Shown here: in pieces, positions 1 through 16,962 of the stretch
Layout of the letters: each line of letters starts with the position of its first letter
Position numbering within the stretch: position 1 is the first letter of the stretch
Source of the DNA: Candidatus Wolfebacteria bacterium GW2011_GWB1_47_1
Lineage (GTDB): Bacteria; Patescibacteriota; Minisyncoccia; UBA6257; UBA9933
Length of the DNA: 64,000 bases
Direction: 5' to 3'
NCBI GenBank assembly: GCA_001029635.1
Contig: CP011209.1
Coordinates: 16,983 to 80,982 of the forward strand
Program-made: the position numbers and the translations under genes
Notes under the pieces: model-generated
Database searches by the model: none
What the model was told of the DNA's origin: nothing
What the model saw: only the letters and a program-made list of their open reading frames with translations

Positions 1-3000
1 GCTTACCCAGTCATCTGCAAATAACTCCGCCTGCTTAAGAATAGTTTCGGTTGCTATAAGCTGTTTATCGGGCGGGTAACCAAACTTTGTAAGCGTGCGC
101 CTTACTAACACGCGTAACTTTGCTTTTACATTTTCCCTAATCGTCCAATCAACTGTTGCGCCACTACGCACCTTCTCTACTAATACCCGCGCAATCTCTC
201 GAAGTGTTGCGTCATCCATTACCTCTCGAGCACTCTCATTATTAGCGAGTGCATCATAAAACGCGAGCTCGTCATCACTCAACCCTAAATCCTCCCCTCG
301 TGCGTCTGCTATTCTTATTTCCTTTGCGAGCTCAATAAGCTCCTGTATTACTTCCGCCGCGGTAAGGAGGTTATTCTGATACTTCTTAATTGTCTTCTCC
401 AGCATTTCTGATAACTTCTTCCCTTGAATGAAGTTCTTTCGCAAACGGCCTTTAATCTCGTCATTTAAAATGCGCTTCAAAAGCTCCATTGCTACATTTT
501 GGTGCTTCATCCCCTTAACTTCTGCAAGGAAGTCGTCCGAGAGAACAGAGAGATCCGGTTTTTGAATACCGGCTGCCGCAAAAATATCTACTACTCCTTC
601 TGCCACAATCGCCTTGTCCACTATCTGTCGTATAGCTGTTTCGATATCTTCCTGCCGATTTTCAGGATTTGGATCAAACTTTATAAGTCGTGCTTTTATC
701 GCTTGAAAAAATGCTACCTCTCCTCGTATAGCAAGTGCCTCCTCGTGAGGTACTGCAATTGCAAAAATCTTTGATAATACTGTAACCTCGTGTGTAAACC
801 GTTCCTGCGCGCTCTGTGGTTTTTGCGCCTTCTTTTTAGGGCTTCCCGTTTCTTTCCCTTGATCCTTCGCGAGAATATGTTCCTGCGCCTCTAAAATAAC
901 CCCCAGCTTGCCGTAGGTATCTAATGTAAAGTAACGGCCATAATCAAAGCCGTGGAACATTTGCTTCACCACCTCATACTTCTCCAGCATTACTTCAACC
1001 GCTTTTTCCTGTGTTATAGTTGGGTCTCCCGTTCCTCCACTTTGGGTATATACTGCAAGCGCCTTTTGTAAATCAGACGCAAAGCCGATATAGTCCACAA
1101 TCAATCCTCCCGACTTATCTCGGAATACTCGGTTTACGCGCGCTATCGCCTGCATAAGATTATGCCCGCGCATCAGCTTGTCTATATACATCGTATGGAG
1201 ACACGGAATATCAAATCCCGTGAGCCACATATCACAAACAACTACCAGCTTAAGTGTATTGTTCGGGTCTTTGAAACGATCAGCGACACGGCGTCGCATT
1301 TCTTTATTTGTATTGTGTGGTTGAAACTCTTTCGGATCGGAAGAATTGGCAGTCATTACTACCTTTATCGCGCCCTTATCCAAATCATCACTATGCCACT
1401 CTGGACGAATAGCGACTATTTCTTCATACAGCTGTACTGCAATTCTTCGGCTCATCGCCACAACCATCGCTTTACCAACATTCACTTCTTGTCGCGCTTC
1501 AAAATGAGCTACGAGGTCTTTTGCAATCTCCTTCATTCGCTCTCTATTACCGACAATTGCTTCCAGTTGTGCCCATTTTGCCTTCGCCTTTTCTTTCGCA
1601 GTAAACTCCACCCCTTCGGCTACGGCTTCAACTTCTGCATCTATCTCTCTGCTCTTCTCTTCCGGTAGATGCACTTTCACTAATCGGCTTTCGTAATAAA
1701 TAGGGACGGTCGCTCCGTCTTTTACTGCATCTTGAATATCATATACATCAAGATACCCTCCAAAGACCGCCGGCGTTGATTTATCCTCGCTTTCGATTGG
1801 CGTACCGGTAAATCCTATAAATGACGCGTTGGGAAGCGCATCTCTCAGATATTTCGCATTGCCGTATCGAGTAATTGCTTCCTCGTCTTTAAATACCGTT
1901 CGCGCTGCAAATCCATATTGACTACGATGTGCTTCATCAGCAATAACAACAATGTTTTTCCTTTCAGTTAGCTGATCATATACCTCTCCCCCATCCTCGG
2001 GGAAAAACTTTTGAATAGTCGTAAACACAATTCCGCCTCCTGCCGTCTGTAATAGTTCTTTAAGATGTGTTCTGCTTTCTGCTTGTACGGGGTCTTGGCG
2101 AAGCAATCCACGGCTCCCCGCAAATGTCTCAAACAGTTGATCATCTAAATCATTTCTATCGGTAATTACCACTATGGTTGGGTTGTTAAGCGCAAGCACT
2201 ACTTTCCCTGTATAGAAAACCATCGAGAGCGACTTCCCCGATCCTTGCGTATGCCAAACAACGCCGATTTTTCGCTCGCCGTTTTCTTCTGTCGCTTGCA
2301 CTGTTGAGGCAATCGCTTTATTCACCACATAGTACTGATGATAGGCGGCGACTTTCTTAATACTTTCAACAACGACTAATCCCGTCTCTTTGTTTTCCTT
2401 TTTTGCCTTTTCAAATACCGTAAAGTTTCGGATCAAATCAAGAAGTACTGCCGGCTTGAGCATCTCCGTAACGATCGTTTCCATCTGTGGCTTTATGTTC
2501 TCGCCCTTACGCTTCTCATCCGGTGCGCGCCATACTACAAACCGTTCCCACGGCGCCGTGAGTGAACCTACGCGCGCATCTAAGCCGTCAGAAGCTATGA
2601 GGATGCCATTATAAACAAACAGCTGAGGTACAGCATCCTTATAGTTTTGCAGTTGGGTAAACGCCTTATGTACTGTCGCATTCTCGTCGGTTGCATTCTT
2701 AAGTTCTATGATTACGAGCGGAAGCCCGTTTACGAGGAGGACCACATCGGGACGCTTACTCGTATGGTCATAGGGAATGGTAAATTGATTGGCGACCACT
2801 AAGTCGTTATTTGTTATGGTATCAAAATCAATAAGATGTACTACTTCTCCCCGAGTACCCCCGTGTTCCGAGGCGACTTCCACGGTTACTCCATCGGTAA
2901 GCATTTTCTGAAACTCCTCATTACTCTCCACTAAGTGCTGTGGCAAAAGGTTAAACACCTTCTTAATGGCATCCTCCCGCGCTTCTGCGGATACAGAAGG

Positions 3001-3162
3001 GTTGATGCGAGCCACCGCCTGTTCCAAGCGACCACGTAAAATGACCTCTCGTAAGTCAGGGCGTTCAATCTCCTGATCGTCAGGCGATAAATAGGCATAG
3101 CCCTGCTTTTCCAGTATTTCTATAACCCACAGCTCTATGTCGTTTTCGTATATTTTGGTCAT
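1..3162 (-). CDS. hsdR: Type I restriction enzyme R subunit (HsdR); C-terminal end runs off the window start
   Basis: Not in the ORF track because the stop lies outside the window. Reverse translation from the ATG at ~3160-3162 gives MTKIYENDIELWV... with superfamily-2 helicase motifs (GSGKS Walker A, IADEAHRSQ DEAH box). The frame stays open to position 1. It lies downstream of hsdM/hsdS. Confidence 0.85.
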   Translation of the reverse strand, partial: MTKIYENDIELWVIEILEKQGYAYLSPDDQEIERPDLREVILRGRLEQAVARINPSVSAEAREDAIKKVFNLLPQHLVESNEEFQKMLTDGVTVEVASEHGGTRGEVVHLIDFDTITNNDLVVANQFTIPYDHTSKRPDVVLLVNGLPLVIIELKNATDENATVHKAFTQLQNYKDAVPQLFVYNGILIASDGLDARVGSLTAPWERFVVWRAPDEKRKGENIKPQMETIVTEMLKPAVLLDLIRNFTVFEKAKKENKETGLVVVESIKKVAAYHQYYVVNKAIASTVQATEENGERKIGVVWHTQGSGKSLSMVFYTGKVVLALNNPTIVVITDRNDLDDQLFETFAGSRGLLRQDPVQAESRTHLKELLQTAGGGIVFTTIQKFFPEDGGEVYDQLTERKNIVVIADEAHRSQYGFAARTVFKDEEAITRYGNAKYLRDALPNASFIGFTGTPIESEDKSTPAVFGGYLDVYDIQDAVKDGATVPIYYESRLVKVHLPEEKSREIDAEVEAVAEGVEFTAKEKAKAKWAQLEAIVGNRERMKEIAKDLVAHFEARQEVNVGKAMVVAMSRRIAVQLYEEIVAIRPEWHSDDLDKGAIKVVMTANSSDPKEFQPHNTNKEMRRRVADRFKDPNNTLKLVVVCDMWLTGFDIPCLHTMYIDKLMRGHNLMQAIARVNRVFRDKSGGLIVDYIGFASDLQKALAVYTQSGGTGDPTITQEKAVEVMLEKYEVVKQMFHGFDYGRYFTLDTYGKLGVILEAQEHILAKDQGKETGSPKKKAQKPQSAQERFTHEVTVLSKIFAIAVPHEEALAIRGEVAFFQAIKARLIKFDPNPENRQEDIETAIRQIVDKAIVAEGVVDIFAAAGIQKPDLSVLSDDFLAEVKGMKHQNVAMELLKRILNDEIKGRLRKNFIQGKKLSEMLEKTIKKYQNNLLTAAEVIQELIELAKEIRIADARGEDLGLSDDELAFYDALANNESAREVMDDATLREIARVLVEKVRSGATVDWTIRENVKAKLRVLVRRTLTKFGYPPDKQLIATETILKQAELFADDWVS

Positions 3163-3164
3163 AG

Positions 3165-5387
3165 TTAACTTTCAGTAATTGATTGCTTCAGTATATCAAA
3201 ATGCTCAGGAAATGTTGCATCCATCATCTCAAGTAAATATTTAACATTTTTTTGAGTTTCAGGTACTAAGGATGGGTCAAATCCGCCTCCCGTAATATGC
3301 GATTGATCATTTGTAAATTTATATATTGCAGTTTTCTTAATTTCATCAAAATTCAATCTTTTAAGCTTGCTGAATGTTTTCTCACTATTAGGAACCCTAA
3401 ACATTAAGAATGTTTCCAAGACCTTTCTTGCAACATTCGGTATATGATAGACAGAGACAATACTGCCGTCTATTTCTAGTTCAAGTAAAATCTTACAAAG
3501 GTAGTGATACTCACTTTCATGATCAATCAGCAGCGGATCTATTTTTTTAATTTCTGCTATTCTTTCATTGTTTAAAACTTTATTTCCTATCATAAAATAG
3601 GGCTTACTTTGCTTTTGATAAAAATAATTAAGCCAATTTATTAACAATCTAAGAAAATCAAAATTATGTGTAAATATAAATACCTGCTTTGCATTTTCCA
3701 CACTATTCTTTAAAAATGCGAATGCCTGAAATAGAGAGTTTGCATCCATACTAGAGACGGGATCGTCTATTACTATTATCCCATCTTTAACATTAAATCC
3801 CTGATCGTTTAGATGGACTGTAAAATATACAAATGCAATCGCCGTCTTCTCTCCTTCGCTTAAATTTTTTGCAATCTTACCACTTCTTTTAATTTCATAT
3901 CCCCCATGTGGAGATACTTCAAAAGTAATTTCCTTCCTCCCTAAAAATATTTCCAGTTTTCTATTTAATTCTTCGCATGCTTTATGCTCAGAAGATATAG
4001 TTGCCTTATTTTTTTCTATCTTTTGAGATAATTCTATTATCCCTAATACTTGTTCATCACCATCAATTATCTTCTTTATTTTTGTATCACAATTTTCAAT
4101 ACCCTTTTCTAAATCTTTTACTGTTTGAAAAATTTCACTCAAGTAATGGTTTTCTAGTTTCTTTTGAGCTTCATCTCGTTGGTTTTGGAAATTAGCAGTT
4201 TTTCCATTATGCCCTTGGATTGTTTTGTTTATTTCCTCAATACTCTTCTCAAGTTTGTTACTTATGGTAAACTCTAAATCAATCCTTTCGGTCGTTTTCG
4301 TTTTTTTGTCTTCGAGTATTCTAATTAAATCACCCAGCTCTCCCAATAAATTTATTCTTTCTTTGTTAAAAGTTGTAAGCCTAGATACATACTCTGTTTG
4401 AAATTCCGTATATAAATTTGCCTTATCAACAGGAACTATCTCCTCTATAAATCTAAAAAATCCCTTTATTTGTTCTATGCTCCTATTTAAGGAAGCCTTA
4501 AGCTCCTGGTCTTCTTTATTAAAATAATTGACCAATTCCTGCATTCGGCTCTCGGGCATGAATTGACCGCAAAATTCACAACTACCATTACCATGCTTTA
4601 AATGCAATGCAAGTCCATCTTCAACCCATCGCGAGATGTCGATGTTTTGTTTTAATCTTTCAATAACTAGAATTTCAACTGTTTGCGCACATAGATTTTT
4701 ACTTTCCTGAATAATAGGATTTAGTGCCTGAAGAAAGCTAAATGTGTCTATTTCTGGGATGCTCACTTTTTCTTCTTGCTTTAATGCAAGAAGACATCCA
4801 TTTATATCTTCGTCGCCTAAGAGTTCCGGCTTAATAAGGGCGGCAAATGCCTTTTCAGCATCCGGCTTTCGATAATTTCTCAACGAAGATCCACTTGTGT
4901 TCGCACCAATAACCTTTGCGACGTCGGTAAACTTATTACCTTTTTCGGTTTCTTTTTTCTCCTTTAGCTTTTCCTGTTCGTTTTTACTATTATTCAGCTC
5001 CTTTAATAAGGTTTCGTCCTTTTCTATCTGCTCAGCTATATCTTTGTTTTCTTCTCCTAAAATAAAGATGGGCTTTGTCTTAGATCCCGCAATTTCAATA
5101 TTATTTTCAATATAATCCTGATTAAAAACCCTAATTTTTTTATCAAACTTTTCACCGTTCTTAAACGTCGCCGTTTCTGAACTAATTTCATATTCTAAAT
5201 TTGGAAACTCTGATAATGATCCACTTTCTATGGCGGCAAATAATTTAGTTAGCGTTGTCTTTCCTGTTCCGTTCCACCCATAAAATATATTGTATCTCTC
5301 AAAATCAGCTAAAACCCCGCTATCCCATTGATAGTTCGAAAAAATGCCGAGATTTTTTATTTTTTTAATCTTTTTAATCATGCCCAT
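3165..5387 (-). CDS. AAA_13 family ABC-type ATPase, RloC/PrrC-like (putative anticodon nuclease) with a coiled-coil CxxC zinc-hook insert
   Basis: 740 aa. N-terminus MIKKIKKIKNLGIFSNY and Walker A YGWNGTGKTTL. LSEGEK signature followed by Walker B IVIDDPVSSMD. Central coiled-coil region containing CEFCGQ. C-terminal R-x3-E (ARKVLETF) with a His ~39 residues downstream. It sits between hsdS and hsdR, as prrC does in the EcoprrI locus. It is AT-rich relative to hsdR and hsdM. Confidence 0.7.
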   Translation of the reverse strand: MGMIKKIKKIKNLGIFSNYQWDSGVLADFERYNIFYGWNGTGKTTLTKLFAAIESGSLSEFPNLEYEISSETATFKNGEKFDKKIRVFNQDYIENNIEIAGSKTKPIFILGEENKDIAEQIEKDETLLKELNNSKNEQEKLKEKKETEKGNKFTDVAKVIGANTSGSSLRNYRKPDAEKAFAALIKPELLGDEDINGCLLALKQEEKVSIPEIDTFSFLQALNPIIQESKNLCAQTVEILVIERLKQNIDISRWVEDGLALHLKHGNGSCEFCGQFMPESRMQELVNYFNKEDQELKASLNRSIEQIKGFFRFIEEIVPVDKANLYTEFQTEYVSRLTTFNKERINLLGELGDLIRILEDKKTKTTERIDLEFTISNKLEKSIEEINKTIQGHNGKTANFQNQRDEAQKKLENHYLSEIFQTVKDLEKGIENCDTKIKKIIDGDEQVLGIIELSQKIEKNKATISSEHKACEELNRKLEIFLGRKEITFEVSPHGGYEIKRSGKIAKNLSEGEKTAIAFVYFTVHLNDQGFNVKDGIIVIDDPVSSMDANSLFQAFAFLKNSVENAKQVFIFTHNFDFLRLLINWLNYFYQKQSKPYFMIGNKVLNNERIAEIKKIDPLLIDHESEYHYLCKILLELEIDGSIVSVYHIPNVARKVLETFLMFRVPNSEKTFSKLKRLNFDEIKKTAIYKFTNDQSHITGGGFDPSLVPETQKNVKYLLEMMDATFPEHFDILKQSITES

Positions 5388-5397
5388 CCTTTTATAA

Positions 5398-6591
5398 TCA
5401 AAATTCCTTTACTCGCACTTCTCCACTTATCAGCTTTGGTAATAATACATCCCTAATATCGCCAAGCTGTTCCATTTGCAATGAGTTGCTTGCTATAGAC
5501 CTAAAGCAAGTTTCGACAAATCCAGCGAATATATCTAAAGTTTTCTTATCTGGCACAACTACTGGATAACCTCTGAGCATCTCTACTTGTACGCGCTGTC
5601 TACCCGATGTACCACTCATCATTTTTATTGCGAAATTGCGAAAAGAAGTATTGCGAGCAAGTAAATATCCATATTCCGAAGGAAGGGGCTTCTTTACTCT
5701 TATAACAATGAATTCGGTAGAACCCCATGCACTCACTCCCTCTGGCAAACACTGGATAAAAGCTGTTTTCCCATTTTCTAAACAGGGAGTGATCCGCGCA
5801 AAAAGAGTATCTCCATTACGAAATCTTGATCCCGAAGAAAATTTGCGCATCAATGGCTTCTCCGTCCAACTCCCTTGTATGGGCAATGCAGACATATCAA
5901 GATAAGGAATTTCCCCGTCCTTTTGAACCACTTCTGATGGATTTAGCTCAATAACATCTTTAAGTTGAGTTAAGTGCCACCCCTTTGGTAATTCTTTGCC
6001 TTTCTCAAACCATTCGTTAAAAATTGCTTGTGCGGTAGCTTCGAGAGTTTTGTTCTGTTTTCGTAGTAATTCTATTTTGTTATCCAAGCTTAAAAGTACT
6101 CCTGCTATTTCTTTTTGTTCTGTTATTGGAGGGAGTTTAATTTCTAAACTCCTCATTAAAGAAGCGGACGCCTCACTAAAAGTAGATCCTGATGAAAGTT
6201 TTTCTATACGATTGCTATTATTTTTTAGCCAATAGTAGATAAAAAGATAGTGCGTATTCTTTTCATCGCATATTATATTTTTAAACCCCTGATTTGTAGT
6301 TAGCTCATTACCCGCAATTGCTACGTATCCTATGGGCGCACGAGACGAAAATAAAACCGTATTTTTAGGAAGCATTTGCGCTGAGGAGTTTCTAATACCC
6401 TCTTCAGTTATATTCCTTTCTCCACGAGTAATATAAACGCCTTTAAAGCTTGAGAGATCTTTAGGCGTTATCCATGCGATATCTCCTCCCCAATATGTTA
6501 CCTCTTTTGTAGAGGGCGTAGCCCCACTAGCAATTTTAGCAACGTCCCCAAGTGTAGTTTCGACCCAATCGCCAATAGCTGCATTCTTCAT
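5398..6591 (-). CDS. hsdS: Type I restriction-modification specificity subunit (HsdS)
   Basis: 397 aa with two target-recognition domains separated by the conserved central helix [24 protein letters not shown]. It overlaps hsdM by 4 nt. Confidence 0.9.
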
Positions 6592-8153
6592 ATTTCAAAT
6601 CCAACCTTTTTTAATTGGTTTTTTATCTCCATATTTATATCCTCCTCCTCGGCAATTTGTCCCTTAAGAGTAGTGGTGAGGCGTTTCATTTTCTCTTCAA
6701 ACGGCTCACTGTCTATTTTTCCGTCTGCAATGCCCGCATATCTTCCGGGGGTAAGGACATAGCCGTGCTTCTGCACATCCGCAAACGTTGCTGACTTACA
6801 AAATCCTTTTATGTCTTCGTATTTATTGTCCTTCTGTCGCCATTCGTGATATGTTCCCGCGATCTTTTGTATATCTTCTTCAGTAAATTCCTTATGCGTA
6901 CTGTCTGCCATAAAGCCCATTTCCGACGCGTCAATAAAGAGAAGCTCTCCAGTTCGCTTTCTATCTCCGTTCCCTAAACGCTTGCGCGAAATAAACCAAA
7001 GACACGCAGGAATACCCGTATTATAAAATAGTTGCTTTGGAAGTGATACGATACAATCCACTAAATCCTCATCGACAAGTTTCTGGCGTATTTCCCCCTC
7101 CCCGCTTTGATTGGACGACAAAGAGCCGTTCGAGAGAACGGTTGCCATTACTCCTTTTGGTGCGAGGTGGTGGATCATATGCTCTATCCACGCAAAGTTT
7201 GCATTGCCGTCTGGAGGAAGCCCATATTTCCATCGCGCATCTCCTTTTAGAATATCCCATCCCCAGTCGCTTTGATTAAATGGTGGATTGGCGAGAATAT
7301 AATCTGCTTTTAAGTCCGGATGTGCATCTTTTAAGAATGATCCCTCACTATTCCAAGCTACTTGCGATCCATCTATACCACGCAAGGCGAGGTTCATTCG
7401 GCATAAGCGGTATGTGGTGTGGTTACTTTCCTGTCCGTAAATAGAAATATCTTCCATTCGTCCACGGTGTGCGACCACAAACTTTTCACTCATTACAAAC
7501 ATACCTCCCGAGCCACACGCAGGGTCATATACGCGCCCTGAAAGAGGCTCTATCATTTCAACCATAAGCTCAACGATGCTTCGTGGGGTATAGAACTGCC
7601 CGCCCTTTTTGCCTTCAAGAGATGCAAATTCACCAAGAAAATACTCATATACGCGACCGATAAGGTCTTTTGATTTCTCGCTTTCGATACCGAGCGCAAC
7701 ATCCGCGATAAGATCAACCAGTCCACCGAGTGCTGCTTTATCCAAATTCGGTTTTGCGTATTCCTTTGGCAATATCCCTTTCAGCGTTGGGTTTACCTTC
7801 TCGATAGCTTCCATTGCCGCGTCCAAGTCCTTACCGATACTCGGAAGCTTTGCCCGTGAGTGGAGATGCGTCCATCGCGCTTCTACTGGTACATAAAATA
7901 CATTTTCTGCTTTGTATTCATCCTGATCTTCGGGGTCTGCTCCTTCGTATTCACCTTTACCTTCTGAGAGTTTTTCGTAATGCACATCAAACGCATCCGA
8001 TATGTACTTTAAAAAAATAAGTCCAAGCACGATATGCTTGTACTCTGCTGCATCTATATTCTTTCTGAGCTTGTCGGCCGCCTTAAAAAGTTGGGCCTCA
8101 AAGTGCCCACTTCCTTGATTTGCATTCTTTTTAGTCTTCTTCTGTTCTTCCAT
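6588..8153 (-). CDS. hsdM: Type I restriction-modification N6-adenine DNA methyltransferase subunit (HsdM)
   Basis: 521 aa with a typical HsdM N-terminal domain, SAM motif I ([11 protein letters not shown]) and motif IV NPPF ([12 protein letters not shown]). Confidence 0.95.
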
Positions 8154-8242
8154 AAGGGTCTGAGCCCTTCTCTATTGGGGCTTAAAGTTCCTACTATTTT
8201 ACCACATTTTGCTTATTTTTTCCAGTGAAATATGGGGTGTGT

Positions 8243-8548
8243 TCACCTTTTCACTTCCCATCCTTTCCTCCTGTAGCACTCTCTCATCTCCTCAATAAAT
8301 TCACCCGTAGGGCGAATATGTCCTCCCATCTCTAAGGTTTTAATAGTACTGTATGCTTTCAATTCTTCGAGGCAATATTTTGCCTTTTCGGGTAATTCTC
8401 TTTTTTCTATTTTGGGTAGTTGAAGAAGAAACAATTCATATATAAGAAACCCCATCATTATAACAACCAACGCCAAAAGCCACATGACTGGGGCGCTCTT
8501 TACTCCCCCGCCTTCCTCTTCTGTGTTTTGTGGCTCTTTTGATGTCAT
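8243..8548 (-). CDS. hypothetical small membrane protein
   Basis: 101 aa with one predicted TM helix (WLLALVVIMMGFLIYELFLL). AT-rich block. Confidence 0.5.
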   Translation of the reverse strand: MTSKEPQNTEEEGGGVKSAPVMWLLALVVIMMGFLIYELFLLQLPKIEKRELPEKAKYCLEELKAYSTIKTLEMGGHIRPTGEFIEEMRECYRRKGWEVKR

Positions 8549-8568
8549 TATCTATCCCTTTAGGTCTT

Positions 8569-9108
8569 TTACATCGATGAATATTGATCGTCATTAGGAA
8601 TTGGCTGATGTTGCTCCTGAGTTCCTTCAAAAATATCCGCTCCGCCCCCGTAAGGTATATATGCCGATGATACTCGCTCCTCATCCTCCTTTGATCTTTG
8701 AGATGGTGCACTTGGGATTTCCGCAAGTTGCTCCTTGAGCCGCTGGAAAACTTCTTTCGGTGTATTCTTAATATCCCAAAATATAGGCTTTTGCTCCGGC
8801 TTTATCTGAGTTAACTCCTCCGATGTCATAGGTCTACGCCTACCCCACTCATCAAATCCTCGTAATTCGAGCTCTCTAATGACCGCAGGACTACTAAAAA
8901 CCTTATGTGGGGCATCAACAACACTTTCCCTATATCCTGCCTCTCTTAAGGCCTTTGCCTTGCTTTTAAAGCCACCTACTTGCCAGCAATCTAATGCTTT
9001 TATTTGCATTGGGCTTATTTTTCGTACGATCTTCTCCATATCATATATAGTACCACCTTTCGCTAAATATGCCTTTATCGTGTCGCGCTCTGCCCATTTT
9101 CCTACCAT
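8569..9108 (-). CDS. hypothetical protein; HTH segment resembles a phage terminase small subunit
   Basis: 179 aa. The segment W..GGFKSKAKALREAGYRESVVDAPHKVFSSPAVIRELE fits the Terminase_2 HTH pattern (..AIRAGYS......LL..P.V...I). The similarity is inferred and not verified. Confidence 0.5.
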   Translation of the reverse strand: MVGKWAERDTIKAYLAKGGTIYDMEKIVRKISPMQIKALDCWQVGGFKSKAKALREAGYRESVVDAPHKVFSSPAVIRELELRGFDEWGRRRPMTSEELTQIKPEQKPIFWDIKNTPKEVFQRLKEQLAEIPSAPSQRSKEDEERVSSAYIPYGGGADIFEGTQEQHQPIPNDDQYSSM

Positions 9109-9177
9109 TTCCTACCTAATACCCCCCCTATCTACTCCTCGATATTGCATAATTTAACCTCATAGGGTAGCGCCCTA

Positions 9178-9735
9178 TCATGCGTTAAATCCGCTGTTAA
9201 TATATTCGTACCCTTCAATCCTTCGCGCGTCAGTTATTGATGTGTGTGATTTTTCGAAGATTTTAGTAAGTGAATTGAGTATCAGCCATTCTGGATCCTT
9301 ATTTTCCTGCTTATAAATATATATGAGGGATTTGTATATATCCTGCTTCCACTCGCTTATCGCAGTCCATATATCTTGCAATCCTATACTATTCCCTTCT
9401 TTAAGAAACGTCAGCCGATATTGCGTAATGTCTTCCCCGAGAAAACCGCGTATTTGTTCAAACTCCATATCTAATAAGCCAAGGTCTATCTCTGTTTCTT
9501 CGGAGAAGTAGTCATTGTATGCATGTTTTGCAAACTCACCCACAATAACTGCCGTAGCAACAGCATACATAAAACTCGAAGCGCTTTCGGCTCCTCCTTG
9601 TATCAAGAACTGCTCGTTCTCTGAGAGCTTTTGCTCTACTTCGTAGCCCCATTTGGCACATCGACCAATAAGCTCCCCGTCAGAATAATCAAGGATTTCC
9701 CTGTATACCTTTTTGTATAATTCTTGTCCTTCCAT
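9178..9735 (-). CDS. hypothetical protein
   Basis: 185 aa ORF that tiles with its neighbours in the AT-rich block. No recognisable motif. Confidence 0.5.
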   Translation of the reverse strand: MEGQELYKKVYREILDYSDGELIGRCAKWGYEVEQKLSENEQFLIQGGAESASSFMYAVATAVIVGEFAKHAYNDYFSEETEIDLGLLDMEFEQIRGFLGEDITQYRLTFLKEGNSIGLQDIWTAISEWKQDIYKSLIYIYKQENKDPEWLILNSLTKIFEKSHTSITDARRIEGYEYINSGFNA

Positions 9736-9747
9736 AAAAGTGCATAT

Positions 9748-10701
9748 TTACTCACATCTAACGCTTGTTTGCGCTGTGCCATTCACAATACCACCGCTAT
9801 ATTGGGTGGTAGACCAACATTGAGTAGCCTTTTGTGGTGCTGGGATTTGTTGTGACTGCTGCTCAATTTGAAGCAACTGCTGACTTACAGACAAAAAAAT
9901 ACTCTTTGTAGCAACTAAACTGTCAATGTATTTCAATGACTGAGAAAAACTATCGGCTTTTTGCTGCTCAAATTTCTGCGCAGCAGTGTTAAACTTTATT
10001 ACCAACCCCAAGAAACGATTTATCTCCTCATTCCCCATAGACAGAACCTTTGATAAATTAGCAGGAGTAGTCCCCTGATCTATTATCCCTTTTATTTCTG
10101 AAGTCATTTCGTATTGCTTCTTTACCTCCGTCTCTAATGGCTCATACAGCGTATTGTAATCCGTTTGCGCACTTTGTATGTATTTTGTGAATTTATTTGC
10201 ATCACTTAGGGCGAAGTTCTTTATCCCTATATCACTTGCCGTATCCGCAAAATCATTTAACAAATCGGCTCTGGCTTGAGCGGAGCTTTTTGCATACGAG
10301 ATATAATTATTCTTAGTTGTTCGAATTGCCCTTAAGAGGGTGCCGAAGTCTTCAATCTGCTGATCTAATTGGCTCAATTTGTCCATATCAGACATCACTT
10401 CCTTTACCAAATCGTCTGCTTTTTTAGTATTAGTGCTCTCCTGCTTTGTGGGTGCGATAATTTTCTGCGTTCCCTGTTCTTTTATTATTCCTTCTCCGCT
10501 TTTGATTTCTTGTACAGCACCGGAAGTTGAGACCTCTTCGCGATTTAAGGGAACCGTGCTCAAAGCTGTCTTTTTATTTATTTCTTCTTGCTTACTATTC
10601 TTTGCCCCTACAAAATAATAGCTCGTTCCCAGTATGGCCAAAATGCCCACAGCCATAAGCACTACTACCGGAACCTGTATAAAACCTTTTATTGATTTCA
10701 T
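9748..10701 (-). CDS. hypothetical membrane-anchored or secreted coiled-coil protein
   Basis: 317 aa. N-terminal TM/signal anchor (VPVVVLMAVGILAILG), a Q-rich coiled-coil body and two C-terminal Cys. Confidence 0.55.
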   Translation of the reverse strand: MKSIKGFIQVPVVVLMAVGILAILGTSYYFVGAKNSKQEEINKKTALSTVPLNREEVSTSGAVQEIKSGEGIIKEQGTQKIIAPTKQESTNTKKADDLVKEVMSDMDKLSQLDQQIEDFGTLLRAIRTTKNNYISYAKSSAQARADLLNDFADTASDIGIKNFALSDANKFTKYIQSAQTDYNTLYEPLETEVKKQYEMTSEIKGIIDQGTTPANLSKVLSMGNEEINRFLGLVIKFNTAAQKFEQQKADSFSQSLKYIDSLVATKSIFLSVSQQLLQIEQQSQQIPAPQKATQCWSTTQYSGGIVNGTAQTSVRCE

Positions 10702-11038
10702 TATGGTGATTATTTGCTTACTATTACCGTTAATTTATTCCGGACGTGGGTAAACAAAAAACCCACCACCAGATAGGCCTTACGGCCATATGCAAGTTTC
10801 CCTGCATAACGCAACAAGCGATCCTGATGATGGGATCTTTAAGCTTGTTGCGATTTTGCACCATACCTATCGCCGAGGCGGTAGGGTTAGGCACTTGCCC
10901 TTGCGGGCTCTATTCGGTTGTTAGCTTGATTATACGGCAAAAAATACGCTTTGGGTATGTTTATAACTTTTTACACTAAACCTGCCTCTATTGGGCTTAT
11001 TTTGCCCGTACATAGGTATTGGAATAAAAAGAGGGCCA

Positions 11039-11434
11039 TTACTGATCCTCTCTTAAATCCCATAGCTTCCAATAGAGGTCGCTATTACCCCTTTCTAAAC
11101 GCGGGTCTTTTTTTAATTTTTTATAAATTTGATCCTGTATATAATAAGCATCACTCCAAATATGCTCTTTTGATAATGTCTCATTATCTATCCCCTCCCG
11201 ATATGGATTATCTATTTCAAACTCAATTTCTGACGTCTTTACGAGAAAATGTTCAATCCAGTGATAATCAGTATTTGTATGTTCTTGGTTCCAATATGTC
11301 TTTATTATTATAGGCAACTCATTAAGCACTACTTTTATCTCTGCTTTTTGATACTGCAAAAAATGCTTCATTCCGTCCTCATAAAGCTTTATCTGTTCAG
11401 GAGTTGGTTTTTCTTCAAAAGAAATTTTAGTCAT
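11039..11434 (-). CDS. hypothetical protein
   Basis: 131 aa ORF with no recognisable motif. Confidence 0.5.
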   Translation of the reverse strand: MTKISFEEKPTPEQIKLYEDGMKHFLQYQKAEIKVVLNELPIIIKTYWNQEHTNTDYHWIEHFLVKTSEIEFEIDNPYREGIDNETLSKEHIWSDAYYIQDQIYKKLKKDPRLERGNSDLYWKLWDLREDQ

Positions 11435-11447
11435 GTATTATGTATAT

Positions 11448-11972
11448 TTAATCAATATTCACATGATCCGTTCTGATGCAAACGACATTAAATATTTCTT
11501 GCGTAAAAAACCCGAAAATTCTCCCGCCTCCTGAATATTGAACCTCTAAAATCTCAACCTCAGGAGATAAATTTCTATACAAAAATTCATACTTGCCTGA
11601 ATTCCCCACTTTATCTCTTATTAGTCCGGATTGTTGCGCGTCAGATTTTGTAGTCGCATTTATTTCAGAAAATTTACGGATTAGCGACTTCGCAGCTTCT
11701 TTCTGAATTTCATCGATTTGCCTATGCTCTAAGCTTTTTTGTTTTAAATGAATTGAGATGTTTTTCCCCTCGGGATCATCTCCGGTTGGAATAGTGATAG
11801 CGTCTGGTATTTTTCCTGCAAATAAAGTTTGTTCGATTGCCTTAACGGCATGTTCTAAATAAGGGGAAATCTCCTTATCCTTATTTTCTTTCCCAAATCT
11901 TTCGATCAATTCAAAAGCCTTAGCCTTAAACCATTTACTGTCCTTTTTTGATTTCTTCGAGCCTTCTCCCAT
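11448..11972 (-). CDS. hypothetical protein; candidate toxin partner of the upstream Panacea-domain gene (possible RelE/ParE-like fold at the C-terminus)
   Basis: 174 aa. Its start overlaps the 3' end of the DUF4065 gene by ~38 nt. The C-terminus GKYEFLYRNL...GGGRIFGFFTQEIFNVVCIRTDH loosely resembles the RelE/HigB pattern (..YRI.Y.....V.VL.IGHR). Confidence 0.45.
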   Translation of the reverse strand: MGEGSKKSKKDSKWFKAKAFELIERFGKENKDKEISPYLEHAVKAIEQTLFAGKIPDAITIPTGDDPEGKNISIHLKQKSLEHRQIDEIQKEAAKSLIRKFSEINATTKSDAQQSGLIRDKVGNSGKYEFLYRNLSPEVEILEVQYSGGGRIFGFFTQEIFNVVCIRTDHVNID

Positions 11973-12417
11973 AATATTCTTTCATAAGATCGGTGTTGAT
12001 TTCGTTATTGCAATATTCATCAATTGCACAACCGCTTCTTGCCTTTTGCCACGGTTCTTCATTATGAGTGAGGAGTTCTAAATAGTCAGCATCAAACTTC
12101 CCGTAGGCACTCCATACATTATCAAGCAATTTCTCTTCTTTATCTGATAAGGCCTCAAAATCACTTTTATTTACAGTAATACTAATATTTCCAAATCCAA
12201 ATTTTTTAAATTCAAAATATATCAATGGAATTGCTGGCCCATGAACCCATGCCTCGATTTGGTCGTCAAAAATCTTCTCCCCATTAAAAACAAGGCTCCA
12301 TGCTTGCGCATAATATAACAACTTTTGTATTTTTTTGTTAGTAATCTCCTCACCAGCAATCTGACTTTTGCTGATAAAATATTCAGCAATCACTAAACTT
12401 TTTGATTTTTGCATCAT
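11935..12417 (-). CDS. Panacea domain (DUF4065, SocA/PanA-like) protein, putative antitoxin
   Basis: 160 aa. KIQKLLYYAQAWSLVFNGEKIFDDQIEAWVHGPAIP matches the DUF4065 signature (KLQKLLYYAQ.W.L......F...I.AW..GPV). Confidence 0.65.
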   Translation of the reverse strand: MMQKSKSLVIAEYFISKSQIAGEEITNKKIQKLLYYAQAWSLVFNGEKIFDDQIEAWVHGPAIPLIYFEFKKFGFGNISITVNKSDFEALSDKEEKLLDNVWSAYGKFDADYLELLTHNEEPWQKARSGCAIDEYCNNEINTDLMKEYYGRRLEEIKKGQ

Positions 12418-12607
12418 ATTTAAAATATATATGCCTCTAATTAATTATAGCATTAAAACAACTATTTAGAATGTGCATAACTTAATCCACTCTCTAACCT
12501 GATTTTAAGGCTAAATGGGATCCCTTTTATTTCTCCATTACCCCCATGGCCATGTCGGGTTGTGTCCCGACCATGCCTATGGATAGTTTCATAATTTCTA
12601 CTGTAGC

Positions 12608-12640
12608 AACAAAAAAAAGAGGGTGCAAGCACCCTCTTCG
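12608..12640 (-). terminator. Rho-independent terminator for the clpP-like gene
   Basis: Plus strand reads A-run then AGAGGGTGC-AAGC-GCACCCTCT. On the minus strand this is a hairpin followed by a T-run. Confidence 0.7.
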
Positions 12641-12646
12641 ATAGTT

Positions 12647-13201
12647 CTACGGGATCAGGTCGATCACCTCGTCGACAAATCCCCGTTCGAGCGCTTCATA
12701 GGCGCTCATGCACATCTCGAGCTTGGAAAACCTCGTAGCCTCCTCGATCGGCTTTCCGAGTTTTGATGCGATAATCCGATATAGCATCTGTTGTCGCTTA
12801 CGGGCGCTTTTAAGCACCTCTGCAAGCTCCTCTTCGCTGTCGGTCACGCGCACCTCTGCTCGTGTATCATGAAACAGAATTTCAGCGCTTGAAAACGCTA
12901 CCCGTTTATGACACGCCTGCAGCACGATCGCGGCCGTCGAGAATGCCCGCCGATACACTACTCCTCGCACCGAAATGCTGGAATTGCGTATTAGTTCGTA
13001 CATCTGCAACCCCGCTACAACAGATCCTCCTTGGCTGTCGATGATCAGATTAACCGTTTCAAACCGCTTTACTGCATCGAGCCACATCATCGCCTTTCCA
13101 AGCTGTTCTGCCATTCTTGGCGTGACCTCTCCGCTCAGGTAGATCACACCCTTTTCGAGCATGTCTCTGAGCATTTCGCCCTCCAGTGCCGCCACGTGCA
13201 A
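12647..13201 (-). CDS. ClpP-family (S14) serine peptidase-like protein, short form
   Basis: 184 aa. IDSQGGSVVAGL aligns with ClpP INSPGGSVTAGL, RRAFSTAAIVL with GQAASMGAFLL (catalytic Ser), and ILFHDTRA with VMIHQPLG (His). The Asp position is uncertain. It is more GC-rich than the upstream island. Confidence 0.7.
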   Translation of the reverse strand: MHVAALEGEMLRDMLEKGVIYLSGEVTPRMAEQLGKAMMWLDAVKRFETVNLIIDSQGGSVVAGLQMYELIRNSSISVRGVVYRRAFSTAAIVLQACHKRVAFSSAEILFHDTRAEVRVTDSEEELAEVLKSARKRQQMLYRIIASKLGKPIEEATRFSKLEMCMSAYEALERGFVDEVIDLIP

Positions 13202-13328
13202 CCCCTCCTTTCTTTCTTCTGTTGTCTATGTGCATTGCCCGGTTGTACCCGAGGCTGTTTTGCTGTATAATGTATACAATAAATATTTAAAAATGTCAAT
13301 GTCGTGACATTACAATCATTTCATTACC

Positions 13329-13595
13329 ATGTTTGAAAAATTCTTTTCAAAACCGCGCGCCGAACATGAGGCCGCAAAAATGCAGGAAAAAATAAAGGAT
13401 GCCGGCATCACTAAGCCCACTTCTGAGGATTACGACAAGGCCGAAGAGCAAGTCGAGCAGGATATCGCAAACCGCGAAGAAGCGGCGCACGGCGAGCGCA
13501 AATACTCCGTTGATGAAAAGGGTATGGTACTCACCGACGAGGAGCGCAAACAGCGTATTGAAGAGGGCCCCGAATCACATGCCAATCAGCGATAA
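13329..13595 (+). CDS. small acidic hypothetical protein
   Basis: 88 aa, rich in E/K, followed by a strong terminator. Confidence 0.5.
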   Translation: MFEKFFSKPRAEHEAAKMQEKIKDAGITKPTSEDYDKAEEQVEQDIANREEAAHGERKYSVDEKGMVLTDEERKQRIEEGPESHANQR

Positions 13596-13599
13596 TCAA

Positions 13600-13630
13600 C
13601 AAAAAAAGACCCATTCGGGTCTTTTTTTGT
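13600..13630. terminator. bidirectional rho-independent terminator
   Basis: AAAAAAAGACCCATTCGGGTCTTTTTTT between convergent genes. Confidence 0.8.
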
Positions 13631-13636
13631 TGATTA

Positions 13637-14095
13637 TCACAATCCCATTTTGCTTTTGATCATGTCGCTAACCGCCTTTGAATCGGCGCGTCCCTTGATC
13701 TGGGGATTGATCTCCGCCATGACCTTGCCCATATCCTTAATCTCCTTTGCCTCTGTCTTTTCAATCGCAGCCGTCACGATCGCATCGAGCTCTTCGGTCG
13801 AAATCTCTTCCGGCAAAAACTCCTTAAAGATCACTATTTCGGCAAGCTCTACGTCTGCCAACTCCTGCCGTCCCGCTTCGGCATATACCGTAGCCGATTC
13901 ATTGCGGCGCTTTACCTCCTTCATCAATACATCGATCACATCCTCATCGCTCAACTCACCCTCGATCCCCTTTCCGCGATTCTCCACCTGTCGGTTGTTG
14001 ATCGCGTTCATTGCGAGGCGCAAGATGTTTGTGCGCTCTGATGTCCCCGCCTTCATTGATTCCTTTATTTTTTCCATCAGTTGTTCTTTGATCAT
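13637..14095 (-). CDS. yqeY: GatB/YqeY domain protein
   Basis: 152 aa with the YqeY-like pattern (NILRLAMNAINN..., EIVIFKEFLPEE..., AKEIKDMGKVM). Confidence 0.85.
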   Translation of the reverse strand: MIKEQLMEKIKESMKAGTSERTNILRLAMNAINNRQVENRGKGIEGELSDEDVIDVLMKEVKRRNESATVYAEAGRQELADVELAEIVIFKEFLPEEISTEELDAIVTAAIEKTEAKEIKDMGKVMAEINPQIKGRADSKAVSDMIKSKMGL

Positions 14096-14170
14096 GCTTA
14101 TGTAAGTCGTTAGTTTGAATACTTTATTATATCACCAAACAAAAATGGCACCATAGCGGCGCCATTTTTA

Positions 14171-14380
14171 TTAGAAGGTTCCCAACTTCTTCGCTGTCTC
14201 TATCTCCGTACGCTTTTCATCGCGGTAGATCGCTGCGATCCTTCGTTTGTTCTTATTGACGGCGCGTCCACGAGTGCGTCGCTTCTTTGCCTCCTTCAAG
14301 ACGCCACTTTGTTGCATCTTCTTGGAAAAGCGGTACAGAAACGCGCTTACCGACTCACCTTCTCGACGTTTTAACTCCAT
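14171..14380 (-). CDS. rpsU: 30S ribosomal protein S21
   Basis: 69 aa basic protein (...GESVSAFLYRFSKKMQQSGVLKEAKKRR...KRR) matching the S21 pattern. Confidence 0.9.
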   Translation of the reverse strand: MELKRREGESVSAFLYRFSKKMQQSGVLKEAKKRRTRGRAVNKNKRRIAAIYRDEKRTEIETAKKLGTF

Positions 14381-14421
14381 TTGGATTGGTTAATTAAATA
14401 GTTATTGATTACTTTGATACC

Positions 14422-14829
14422 TTAAACGTTAAGGATGCGATCCTTAATGACCTTCAGCGACTCCTTAGGAGGATTTCCAACAACGCTATGGAGCGAACCC
14501 CCGCCGTCATCACGCCACCGAGGCATGATATGAATATGCAGATGGTCTATCGCTTGCCCAGCAACTTTACCATGGTTGATGCCGATTGTAAAGCCATCCG
14601 GCCCCAATGCCTTCTGCAAGGTCGCCGTCACCTTCCTAACCGCCGCAAATACCGGTTCCAGCTCTTTCTCGGGCAGATCGAGGATCGTTTCGGCATGTAT
14701 TTTTGGAATGATCATCGTGTGCCCCGGGGTGCGCGGGAAGACGTCTAATATCCCCACCACGTGGTCATCTTCATAGACGATTTCAGCCTCTCGGACCTTA
14801 TTCGCAATAGCGCAAAATAGACACTCCAT
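14422..14829 (-). CDS. HIT family (histidine triad) hydrolase
   Basis: 135 aa with the HIT motif HLHIHIMPR near the C-terminus. Confidence 0.9.
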   Translation of the reverse strand: MECLFCAIANKVREAEIVYEDDHVVGILDVFPRTPGHTMIIPKIHAETILDLPEKELEPVFAAVRKVTATLQKALGPDGFTIGINHGKVAGQAIDHLHIHIMPRWRDDGGGSLHSVVGNPPKESLKVIKDRILNV

Positions 14830-14918
14830 ATTTGTTGAATTTCTAATTACTAATTTATAATTTTTAAATGATCACCCAGATATTAGGTCATCCATTAATA
14901 ATCAAGCATTAGAAATTT

Positions 14919-16232
14919 TTATTTCAGTCGCTTTTTTACTTCTTCTACAATACGCTCCAAGGGTACGCTTTCTTGCGCACCCGTTTCCATATCTCTGACG
15001 ATAATACTCCCTTCGAATACCTCGCGCTGCCCCAAGATCAGAGACAACTGCGCCTGCTCCTTATCCGCTACGCGCATTTGCGACTTCAAGGAATCCTTTC
15101 CAAATGATTCGTTAATACGCACTCCGCTTTTGCGAAATTCCTCGATCAACGCTAACCCTCGCTTCTTCGCCTCATCTCCGATATGCACCAAAAACACCCT
15201 TGCGGCTCCTCTCGGCACTATGATTTTTCCACTCGCCTTCATTACTTCGATGATGCGTTCTGTGCCAAGTGCACTCCCTACTGCCGACAACTTCCCCAGC
15301 TTTAGCGTTTCAGAAAGATAATCATACCGTCCTCCTCCGCCAAGCGCAACAGAAAATCCTTCGCCAAAGAACTCGAATACCGTACGGTTGTAGTAATCCA
15401 ACCCGCGAACCAGGTACGAATCGATATAGTACGGAATCTTCACCTCATCGAGGTATTCCAATACCTTCGTGAAATGGGCTTTGCATTCCGAATCGAGATA
15501 ATCGAGAATGATTGGCGCTTCAGCCTTTACGAGCTGACATTTTTCTTCTTTGCAATCAAGAACTCGCAATGGATTTGTACTTATGCGATTTTTGCAATCC
15601 TTACAAATCTTCAACGCATTCTTTTTATAATGCGCTTCCAGCTTTTTAATGTATGTCGCGCGACACTTGTGACATCCGATGCTATTGATATGCACCGTTA
15701 CGTTTTTTATCTTCAACTCTTCAATGATCCTGAACGCGCTCATGATCGCCTGCGCATCATATACAGGATCACTTTCGGCTCCCAAAATTTCAAATCCTAC
15801 CTGATTGAACTGCCTATATCTCCCCGCCTGTGGCTGCTCATATCGAAATACCGGTCCTTCATAATAGAGCTTCATTGGTTGTCCGAACTGGCTCAACCCG
15901 TGCTGATAATAGGCACGCATGACCGCCGAGGTGAATTCCGGTCGCATCACAAGCTTATCGCCCCCCCTCGTCTTTATGACAAACATCTCCTTTTCGACAA
16001 TATCGGTCTTTGTTCCCAATCCCCGCTCGAATATGTCCGCACCTTCGAGTACCGGCGTATCGATGCGTTGGAAATTATAAAACTCACCGACGTGTTTTGT
16101 CGCTAAACGGACCTTATCCCACAATGGCTGCTCCTCCGGGAGAATGTCGTGCATCCCCTTTACGGTCTGATATGCCATCTTCTTCTCTCTCACCTTTTTT
16201 TCCTTTTTTGGAGCGGCTTCTTTTTCTGCCAT
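14919..16232 (-). CDS. hisS: histidine--tRNA ligase
   Basis: 437 aa with HisRS N-terminal motifs (GMHDILPEE, class II motifs) and an anticodon-binding domain. The true start may be M19 (~16178, MAYQTVKGMHD). Confidence 0.95.
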   Translation of the reverse strand: MAEKEAAPKKEKKVREKKMAYQTVKGMHDILPEEQPLWDKVRLATKHVGEFYNFQRIDTPVLEGADIFERGLGTKTDIVEKEMFVIKTRGGDKLVMRPEFTSAVMRAYYQHGLSQFGQPMKLYYEGPVFRYEQPQAGRYRQFNQVGFEILGAESDPVYDAQAIMSAFRIIEELKIKNVTVHINSIGCHKCRATYIKKLEAHYKKNALKICKDCKNRISTNPLRVLDCKEEKCQLVKAEAPIILDYLDSECKAHFTKVLEYLDEVKIPYYIDSYLVRGLDYYNRTVFEFFGEGFSVALGGGGRYDYLSETLKLGKLSAVGSALGTERIIEVMKASGKIIVPRGAARVFLVHIGDEAKKRGLALIEEFRKSGVRINESFGKDSLKSQMRVADKEQAQLSLILGQREVFEGSIIVRDMETGAQESVPLERIVEEVKKRLK

Positions 16233-16337
16233 AAATTCGAAATATGAAAAGTGGAATATGAAAAATAAAGAAATATAATCCGTAGATTCTTACCCTCTCT
16301 TTCCCTTTTTCATTTTCCGCTTTCCTTCATTCGTGTA

Positions 16338-16889: not shown

Positions 16890-16962
16890 GTTTGCTAATT
16901 TGTTAACTTCATTTTAGTATAAACGTAGGCAATGTCAAACAGACATTTTTCTTATTTTTTCT

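Follow-up and report, generated by a model that had tools for sequence, protein, structure and literature searches.

A type I restriction-modification operon of Candidatus Wolfebacteria with an RloC-type gene between hsdS and hsdR

A stretch of 64,000 nucleotides from the genome of Candidatus Wolfebacteria bacterium GW2011_GWB1_47_1 (assembly GCA_001029635.1, contig CP011209.1, positions 16,983 to 80,982; hereafter referred to as the window) carries at its beginning, on the minus strand, the hsdM, hsdS and hsdR genes of a type I restriction-modification (R-M) system and, between hsdS and hsdR, a fourth gene that we designate here as X. Judged by its sequence, the X protein possesses the architecture of RloC and is not a generic ABC ATPase; the anticodon nuclease activity and the excision of the wobble nucleotide that go along with RloC family membership are thus predicted properties of this protein. 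By analogy with the studied RloC enzymes, we regard it as likely, with a rough probability of 0.7, that X controls its own activity and backs up the restriction system, together with which it is expressed and transferred, by abortive infection. A first-pass annotation, prepared from the DNA sequence alone, had already recognized the gene order hsdM-hsdS-X-hsdR, had classified X as an AAA_13/ABC-type ATPase, and had pointed out that X resides in the position that prrC occupies in the EcoprrI system; the gene coordinates and the Pfam, NCBIfam and PADLOC searches bear out all of these points.

Family membership and domain architecture of X

The X protein matches the Pfam profile AAA_13 (PF13166) over its full length (E=7.7e-128; residues 16-718 on profile positions 5-711 of 713), and its top-scoring PADLOC profile, PDC-S06, likewise spans the entire protein (E=2.6e-249). 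Both names are database labels for the family to which X belongs and carry no mechanism; in the literature, PDC-S06 figures as a census item only. In addition, the PADLOC profile for PrrC matches the C-terminal half of X (residues 458-726, E=3.2e-11), and many of its homologues (about 50-65% identity) carry the Joint Genome Institute (JGI) label 'wobble nucleotide-excising tRNase', that is, RloC. As a comparator from the published RloC collection we used the 792-amino acid open reading frame (ORF) of Ralstonia/Cupriavidus metallidurans CH34, orthologue #37 (YP_587691) in Table S1 of PMC2610378. A BLASTP alignment covers residues 4-737 of X (E=1e-102) and places its CxxC, R-x3-E and S-H motifs in register with those of the CH34 protein, whose triad region reads ARRLLE...HSH; the overall identity to this listed orthologue is only about 30%, and X differs from it further in being encoded by a genome of the Patescibacteria, members of the Candidate Phyla Radiation (CPR). 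An entry for a 'hypothetical protein' in a Candidatus Wolfebacteria metagenome-assembled genome (MAG; record LCMT01000006.1) matches X at 100% identity. NCBIfam contributed nothing informative for X, merely sub-threshold fragments of ABC transporters and RecF, and a sequence search of the PDB yielded marginal matches to ABC ATPases and AriA at the top and no solved PrrC or RloC structure.

The definition of RloC proteins rests on ABC-ATPase motifs, on a CxxC motif, and on an Arg-x3-Glu-x36-52-His triad in which a Ser often precedes the His; they range in length from 658 to 897 amino acids (PMC2610378). With 738-740 residues, X falls inside this range and is about twice as long as PrrC. The length of 740 residues given by the first-pass annotation is that of the reading frame from its first ATG. 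The true start is probably the second ATG (M3, base 5381), which gives a protein of 738 amino acids, because M3 is invariant in all 70 homologues (50-71% identity) of our conservation alignment, is preceded by an AGGA sequence 6 nt upstream, and is the start used in the public annotation.

Each of the sequence motifs that characterize the RloC family can be located in X (Table 1). Since C270, C273, R654 and H697 are invariant in the 70 aligned proteins and position 658 is always acidic (Glu in 40, Asp in 30), these matches go beyond what chance would produce in the sequence. The Walker B/D-loop segment (residues 539-548) follows the pattern VIDDP...S-x-D. An AlphaFold2 (AF2) model of X (predicted local distance difference test score, pLDDT, of 83.8) depicts an ATPase head that is divided by a helical insert with a length of about 370 residues, the long helices of which comprise residues 112-164, 291-315, 327-361, 378-442 and 450-482; the CxxC motif is part of the loop that connects helices 249-265 and 279-288. 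The resemblance of this CEFC motif to the zinc hook of RloC, already noted in the first-pass annotation, is accompanied by a strict conservation of both Cys residues and a place near the middle of the modelled insert. Its sequence context, W-V-E-x-G-L-x-L-H...C-x-F-C-G, recurs in the CH34 protein and among the RloC sequences that the supplement of PMC2610378 aligns. We therefore consider the CEFC motif as a predicted Rad50-like zinc hook with putative zinc binding.

A fold search with the entire model recovered Rad50 (7zr1, E=5e-7), the heads of cohesin and condensin, Lamassu LmuB, AriA and PtuA, and found no PrrC or RloC structure among the solved structures. Like X, Rad50/SbcC, Lamassu LmuB, AriA of the PARIS system and PtuA of Septu and retron systems possess an ABC head that an antiparallel insert of helices divides in two; in Rad50, the tip of this insert carries a CxxC hook. 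In contrast to X, these Rad50/SMC-like ATPases contain no fused C-terminal RNase and work with separate nuclease partners; their likeness to X at the sequence level is marginal (E=0.05 for AriA).

The C-terminal domain of X contains the R-x3-E...H arrangement pointed out in the first-pass annotation. In full, it reads R654-K-V-L-E658, followed by 38 residues and S696-H697, a spacing that fits the published R-x3-E-x36-52-H motif (PMC2610378). R654, H697 and N693 are invariant in all 70 homologues, and H628 is invariant or nearly so. The corresponding triad of the Geobacillus enzyme GkaRloC is formed by R692, E696 and H737. In EcoPrrC, the residues H295, R320, E324, R349, N352 and H356 are essential (Meineke and Shuman; PMC3025547), and we infer from motif spacing, not from an alignment, that H628, R654, E658, K690, N693 and H697 of X would be their counterparts. 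The presumed equivalent of Arg349 is thus a Lys (codon 3318-3320), a residue present at this position in 68 of the 70 homologues (one has Arg), whereas the CH34 protein has an Arg there; Arg349 of EcoPrrC is strictly essential, and an R349K mutant is inactive (PMC3025547). When modelled in isolation (pLDDT 86.1), the C-terminal domain folds into a beta-hairpin followed by helices. Its best Foldseek match, the HEPN toxin 7ae6_B, has an E value of 0.28 and a probability of 0.85 and is thus below significance; five further HEPN or related chains appear among the top 30 matches, none of them at E<=0.001. PrrC and RloC anticodon nucleases have been assigned to the HEPN superfamily (PMC3710099), and the domain model of X is consistent with this published assignment and does not independently demonstrate it.

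One might read these structural data in an entirely different way, and view X as a DNA-end-binding ATPase of the Rad50/SbcC type that aids the restriction enzyme by tethering or processing DNA ends, with a C-terminal domain that is purely structural. The search with the whole protein, which brought up only Rad50/SMC-type ATPases, the want of a significant structural match for the C-terminal domain, and the Lys in place of the presumed Arg349 equivalent would all be in keeping with such a role. We nevertheless consider it very improbable, given the strict conservation of H628, R654, N693, H697 and the acidic residue at position 658, the triad spacing, the match of the PrrC profile to the C-terminal half of X, and the fact that the operon contains no gene for an Mre11/SbcD-type partner. 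Furthermore, mutation of the triad abolished the nuclease activity of GkaRloC (PMC2610378).

Table 1. Positions in the window of the hsd operon, of the predicted functional motifs of X, and of a candidate promoter
Feature	Positions	Strand	Remarks
hsdM, type I methyltransferase subunit	6588..8153	-	521 aa; N6_Mtase + HsdM_N
hsdS, specificity subunit	5398..6591	-	397 aa; Methylase_S, two target-recognition domains
rloC-type gene X	3165..5387	-	740 aa from first ATG; AAA_13 full length
hsdR, restriction/translocase subunit	1..3162	-	1054 codons; TIGR00348; stop codon outside window
Walker A/P-loop GWNGTGKTT, residues 37-45	5253..5279	-	G42, K43, T44, T45 invariant 70/70
Predicted helical (coiled-coil-like) insert dividing the ATPase head, ~residues 112-482	3942..5054	-	AF2 secondary structure
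Putative CxxC zinc-hook motif CEFC near mid-insert, residues 270-273	4569..4580	-	C270, E271, C273 invariant 70/70
ABC signature-like LSEGEK, residues 509-514	3846..3863	-	L509, S510, E513 invariant
Walker B + D-loop IIVIDDPVSSMD, residues 537-548	3744..3779	-	D541, D542, P543, S546, D548 invariant
Switch histidine T573-H574	3666..3671	-	invariant 70/70
Predicted C-terminal anticodon-nuclease (HEPN-like) domain, ~residues 595-740	3168..3605	-	triad spacing, conservation; also contains H628, K690, N693
Putative triad codon R654	3426-3428	-	
Putative triad codon E658	3414-3416	-	
Putative triad codon H697	3297-3299	-	
Candidate operon promoter upstream of hsdM	8196..8224	-	TGGAAA-17-TAAAAT, extended TG, 9/12 matches, weak evidence

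The hsd operon and the linkage of RloC to hsd genes

The four genes hsdM-hsdS-X-hsdR constitute one tightly packed operon on the minus strand. An ATGA overlap joins the stop codon of hsdM with the start codon of hsdS, the stop codon of hsdS is separated by 10 nt from the first and by 16 nt from the second ATG of X, and the TAA stop codon of X is followed by the dinucleotide CT and then the ATG of hsdR. Co-translation of X and hsdR had been deduced from this 2-nt gap in the first-pass annotation; the gap is real and reflects operon packing and possible translational coupling, but falls short of demonstrating co-translation. The type I system itself is uninterrupted. HsdM is recognized by the Pfam profiles N6_Mtase (E=8.6e-106) and HsdM_N (E=1.9e-25) and by the PADLOC profile MTase_I (E=3e-202), HsdS by Methylase_S over two stretches that represent its target-recognition domains (E=9.7e-42) and by Specificity_I of PADLOC (E=1.8e-105), and HsdR by NCBIfam TIGR00348 (E=9.6e-194) and the Pfam domains HSDR_N, SWI2_SNF2, T1R_D3-like and T1RH-like_C, and hence as a protein with a nuclease, a superfamily 2 (SF2) motor and a C-terminal domain. 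The notion that hsdR is cut by the edge of the window had to be corrected: its 1054 codons are free of stops and the HsdR protein in the public record has exactly 1054 amino acids, so that the gene is complete save for its stop codon. The nearest solved structure to HsdM is 3khk (E=5e-138), followed at a distance by the M subunits of EcoR124II (1e-39) and EcoKI (4e-17), and the nearest solved relative of HsdR is EcoR124I (E=4e-35); hence, the likeness to the type IC prototype EcoR124I is only a distant one (E values of about 1e-35 to 1e-40). A scan for promoters and terminators returned no more sites than were found in shuffled sequence, and the sole, weak candidate promoter precedes hsdM. An antisense ORF of 168 codons inside hsdR (1162-1668, plus strand) is probably spurious, as nothing supports a gene at this position.

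X is strikingly AT-rich, an observation of the first-pass annotation that holds: its guanine plus cytosine (GC) content is 0.327 overall and 0.283 at third codon positions (GC3), compared with 0.455/0.435 for hsdR, 0.444/0.420 for hsdM and 0.394/0.312 for hsdS. This property is not special to the Wolfebacteria locus. In 60 of 66 relatives, the X homologue has a lower GC content than its flanks (median difference, 6 points), and in each hsd-linked locus the GC content of the hsdS and X block is below that of hsdM and hsdR; the low GC content is thus a trait of the rloC family and of the hsdS-cargo block, and the rare codon usage of rloC had already been noted by Davidov and Kaufmann (PMC2610378). 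The low GC content was accordingly rejected as a sign that X has recently been transferred into the Wolfebacteria genome.

How often RloC proteins are found together with hsd genes was assessed from both sides. Scanning a single genome for each species, we obtained 451 relatives of X and inspected the best 80 (36-66% identity) together with 10-kb flanks. The gene order M-S-X-R alongside homologues of the Wolfebacteria hsd genes is present in six of them, which derive from a gammaproteobacterium (L001), a member of the Woesearchaeota (L014), a representative of the Methanosarcinales (L019), Pelolinea (L024), an unclassified microorganism (L026), and a member of the Nitrospirota (L079). The HsdM proteins of these loci are 58-70% identical to that of Wolfebacteria in the five loci where one was found (no hsdM was detectable in L019), and their HsdR proteins are 49-62% identical. 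X directly follows hsdS in four of the five intact linked loci, and three of these five also have hsdR immediately next to X or about 110 nt past it (L024); extra genes, among them those for RhuM and an AAA_21-like ATPase, are inserted in L001 and L019.

Locus L001 (MGXG01000005.1, positions 5890-17849; Gammaproteobacteria bacterium GWE2_37_16) encodes the protein nearest to X (66% identity), and its HsdM and HsdR proteins are 70% and 62% identical to their Wolfebacteria counterparts. In this locus, the gene for RhuM lies between hsdM and hsdS, a 425-amino acid ATPase-like protein and a protein of 147 amino acids are encoded between rloC and hsdR, and the hsdR frame looks split (829 and 168 amino acids). 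The woesearchaeotal locus L014 (JBAZVA010000040.1, a MAG with 0.9x coverage) is counted with reservation: hsdM, hsdS, X and hsdR turn up in this order in a tblastn search, but the 11.9-kb contig contains just one ORF of at least 100 amino acids, which points either to strong decay of the locus or to an assembly with very many errors.

No hsd genes lie within 10 kb of about 90% of the 80 relatives, and an unrelated type I system is found nearby in three to four further loci. The neighbourhoods of the unlinked RloC proteins contain large serine recombinases (nine loci), ParB_N + N6_N4_Mtase fusions (six), SbcCD-like pairs (six to seven), and RhuM (three); a Dam-type D12 methylase gene lies directly upstream in five loci. 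Orphan-looking DNA methyltransferases or recombinases stand beside unlinked RloCs in, among others, L004-L006, L009, L013, L017, L030, L032, L035 and L054, and an SbcCD-like pair accompanies RloC in a Sphingomonas group. In a neighbour-joining tree of 69 X relatives, the hsd-linked proteins are placed at four separate positions; the idea that they might form a single clade was consequently discarded.

The reciprocal survey comprised 80 metagenomic loci (L083-L162) that encode the closest relatives of the Wolfebacteria HsdR protein (51-81% identity). A homologue of X is absent from all of them. The gap between hsdS and hsdR in these loci varies from 6 nt to 7.5 kb, and it accommodates Shedu SduA_C proteins (five loci), Bro-N proteins (five), PIN_12 proteins (four), a subtilase together with an AAA+ protein (four), a Gabija-like pair of OLD-TOPRIM and UvrD proteins (two), as well as AAA_21 and Schlafen AlbA_2 proteins; an unannotated protein of 296 amino acids is encoded there in 13 of the 80 loci (e.g. 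L098:2846-3736). The stretch from hsdM to hsdR, and above all the hsdS-hsdR interval, is thus a slot for alternative second-line defence genes in this hsd family, and RloC is one optional cargo of it. Since few RloC proteins are linked to hsd genes and none of the 80 loci with the closest HsdR relatives contains RloC, the linkage is facultative on both sides.

The first-pass annotation had regarded an RloC protein inside an hsd operon as a hybrid architecture. That the linkage is rare agrees with the literature (PMC2610378, PMC3874168) and with the six linked loci in our own survey. A new hybrid architecture is unwarranted, because rloC, rloE and rloG received their name, 'restriction linked orf', from the type I loci of Campylobacter (Miller et al. 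2005, as cited in PMC2610378), and because eight of 72 RloC orthologues were found at a type I or type III R-M locus in 2008, for instance those of Shewanella putrefaciens CN-32, delta proteobacterium MLMS-1 and Nitrobacter winogradskyi in Table S1 of that study (PMC2610378). A survey of HEPN proteins likewise characterizes PrrC/RloC as 'often found in R-M operon' (PMC3710099). By description, to which our comparison is limited, the rloC/rloE/rloG region of Campylobacter jejuni resembles the Wolfebacteria locus in that an RloC-type gene lies among type I hsd genes. In contrast, the gene for GkaRloC adjoins an hsdR relic and that for the Acinetobacter protein AbaRloC is unlinked, whereas X is found inside an intact hsd operon. 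Hence, hsd-embedded RloC is an uncommon but documented arrangement, to which the Wolfebacteria locus adds a further member and not a new kind of system.

Control of the predicted nuclease

X resembles GkaRloC and AbaRloC in its ABC-ATPase motifs, in its coiled-coil-like insert with a CxxC motif, in its triad (R-x3-E-x38-S-H in X), and in the absence of the Walker A arginine and, by eye, of the LARP motif that mark PrrC, and what has been learned from these two proteins suggests how X might operate. Excision of the wobble nucleotide, activation by DNA ends and ATP, and a response to zinc are biochemical properties of GkaRloC and AbaRloC. The anticodon nuclease of GkaRloC is switched on by its own DNA-dependent ATPase, and mutations in the zinc hook bypass this switch (PMC3458546). 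In Acinetobacter, an inducer of double-strand breaks activates RloC, and deletions of hsdR, hsdM or hsdS are without effect (PMC3874168). By extension, X would dimerize via its Rad50-like ABC-ATPase head, the coiled coil and intramolecular zinc hooks would hold the C-terminal HEPN-like RNase off, and DNA ends together with ATP hydrolysis would turn the RNase on. The activated enzyme would then cut the anticodon loops of tRNAs with excision of the wobble nucleotide, and the ensuing stop of translation would abort the infection once DNA restriction had been evaded or overwhelmed. Through co-transcription with the hsd genes, restriction as the first line and tRNA cleavage as the second line of defence would be expressed and transferred together. 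It is conceivable, although speculative, that DNA ends made by the cognate HsdR feed the RloC switch, a link between both systems that would need no contact of their proteins.

EcoPrrC provides the obvious precedent for a closer relationship. In EcoprrI (prrA-prrB-prrC-prrD, type IC), it likewise stands between hsdS and hsdR, is a homologous ATPase/nuclease, and follows the same triad logic as X. PrrC proteins are always hsd-linked, are masked by the R-M complex, and nick tRNA-Lys, whereas RloC excises the wobble base; with 341-416 amino acids, they lack the coiled-coil/zinc-hook insert that accounts for about 370 of the 738-740 residues of X, and they are distinguished by the PrrC box, control through dTTP, and an Arg at the end of Walker A (PMC2610378, PMC3458546). 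X might accordingly be a guard in the manner of PrrC, bound and masked by HsdM, HsdS and HsdR and freed when a phage anti-restriction protein disables the complex; its embedding in the hsd operon would then be functionally required, and the zinc-hook switch would represent a second layer of control. The shared slot lends weight to this idea, as PrrC is kept latent by the proteins that prrA, prrB and prrD encode (PMC3025547), and so do the tight packing of the genes with a mere 2 nt between X and hsdR, the single homologous hsd family in all six linked loci, and the position of X directly after hsdS in four of the five intact ones; an interaction of RloC with R-M proteins was left open by Kaufmann's group (PMC2610378, PMC3874168).

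We nevertheless consider control of X by the Hsd proteins to be unlikely. The great majority of X relatives lack hsd neighbours, the closest HsdR relatives keep unrelated defence genes and no RloC in the slot, and the linked proteins are scattered over the RloC tree; moreover, AbaRloC is neither silenced nor activated via its unlinked hsd genes (PMC3874168). The Walker A motif of X ends with GKTT-L and does not possess the terminal Arg of the PrrC type (PMC3458546 for PrrC), and, by eye, the residues preceding H628 (LLIDHESEY) are unlike the LARP motif of PrrC (KYGDSNKSFSY). The facultative nature of the linkage on both sides favours a self-switched RloC in a defence-cargo slot over an RloC silenced by Hsd proteins.

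Several considerations weigh against the view that X is a self-regulated abortive-infection nuclease. The predicted HEPN fold of its C-terminal domain stays below significance, and K690 would replace the essential Arg349, if the spacing of EcoPrrC holds for X. Furthermore, the independence of AbaRloC from hsd genes concerns an unlinked hsd locus, and the constant place of X after hsdS together with the one hsd family in all six loci could mean a specific physical partnership. A combination of both modes of control may therefore be entertained, although we find it doubtful: hsd-embedded RloC proteins would be double-gated guards, held by their zinc-hook/ATPase switch and, in addition, by the cognate type I complex with which they would be in contact, and would fire either when this complex is disabled by an anti-restriction protein or when DNA ends flood from its own cleavage. 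If this were true, such proteins would be evolutionary and mechanistic intermediates between PrrC and free-standing RloC, and the Wolfebacteria locus, with its compact operon and all motifs intact, would be a tractable object for their study.

Genomic surroundings and significance of the locus

Upstream of hsdM (8243-12417, minus strand) lie seven small ORFs, only one of which has a Pfam match, to the SocA/Panacea antitoxin domain; the gene for ClpP follows at 12647-13201, and the GC content dips to 0.32-0.37 at 11000-12500. Past hsdR, the public record (L081, 15405-19914) contains five small ORFs, a gene for a large serine recombinase of 549 amino acids about 3 kb beyond hsdR, and then the gene for YchF. 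The flanking ClpP and YchF genes, the small ORFs and the large serine recombinase indicate that the hsd-rloC operon is probably part of an integrated island of about 17 kb. The SocA/Panacea-domain protein (160 amino acids, E=2e-22; 11935-12417, minus strand) overlaps the start of an ORF of 174 codons (11448-11972, minus strand) whose product has a weak match to the PADLOC profile NsnC (1e-4); to judge from their sequences, the two may form a PanA-type toxin-antitoxin pair.

This setting raises the question whether X is a mere hitch-hiker. The hsdS-hsdR interval might be a recombination hot-spot, with no functional tie between X and restriction beyond their co-transfer, and X may mainly stabilize the island as a toxin that punishes its loss or DNA damage. 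The varying contents of the slot, the low GC content that the hsdS and X block shows in every linked locus, the serine recombinase beyond hsdR, and the large serine recombinases (nine loci) and other mobile-element genes beside unlinked relatives would fit such an addiction module, as does the report that mobile elements often carry rloC as their only cargo (PMC3458546). We judge this explanation to be improbable as an alternative, not least because it largely overlaps with our own, a defence role and mobility not being mutually exclusive. By a rough estimate, six insertions between hsdS and hsdR in 80 loci greatly exceed the number expected for a gene placed at random, and the other cargo genes of the slot are themselves defence genes; together, these findings speak for a selection of defence combinations.

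Phage defence in the Candidate Phyla Radiation has been little studied, and the Wolfebacteria locus provides a clean and intact RloC within a working-looking type I operon of such a bacterium. The hsdS-hsdR interval of this hsd family emerges as a swap-in slot that is occupied by RloC, Shedu, PIN, Gabija-like and other genes. Since 2008, it has been asked whether R-M-linked RloC proteins communicate with the restriction enzyme in the manner of PrrC or depend solely on the DNA-damage switch that they contain. With its compact arrangement of four genes, the hsd-rloC operon of Candidatus Wolfebacteria is a suitable test object for this question of crosstalk between RloC and the restriction enzyme.

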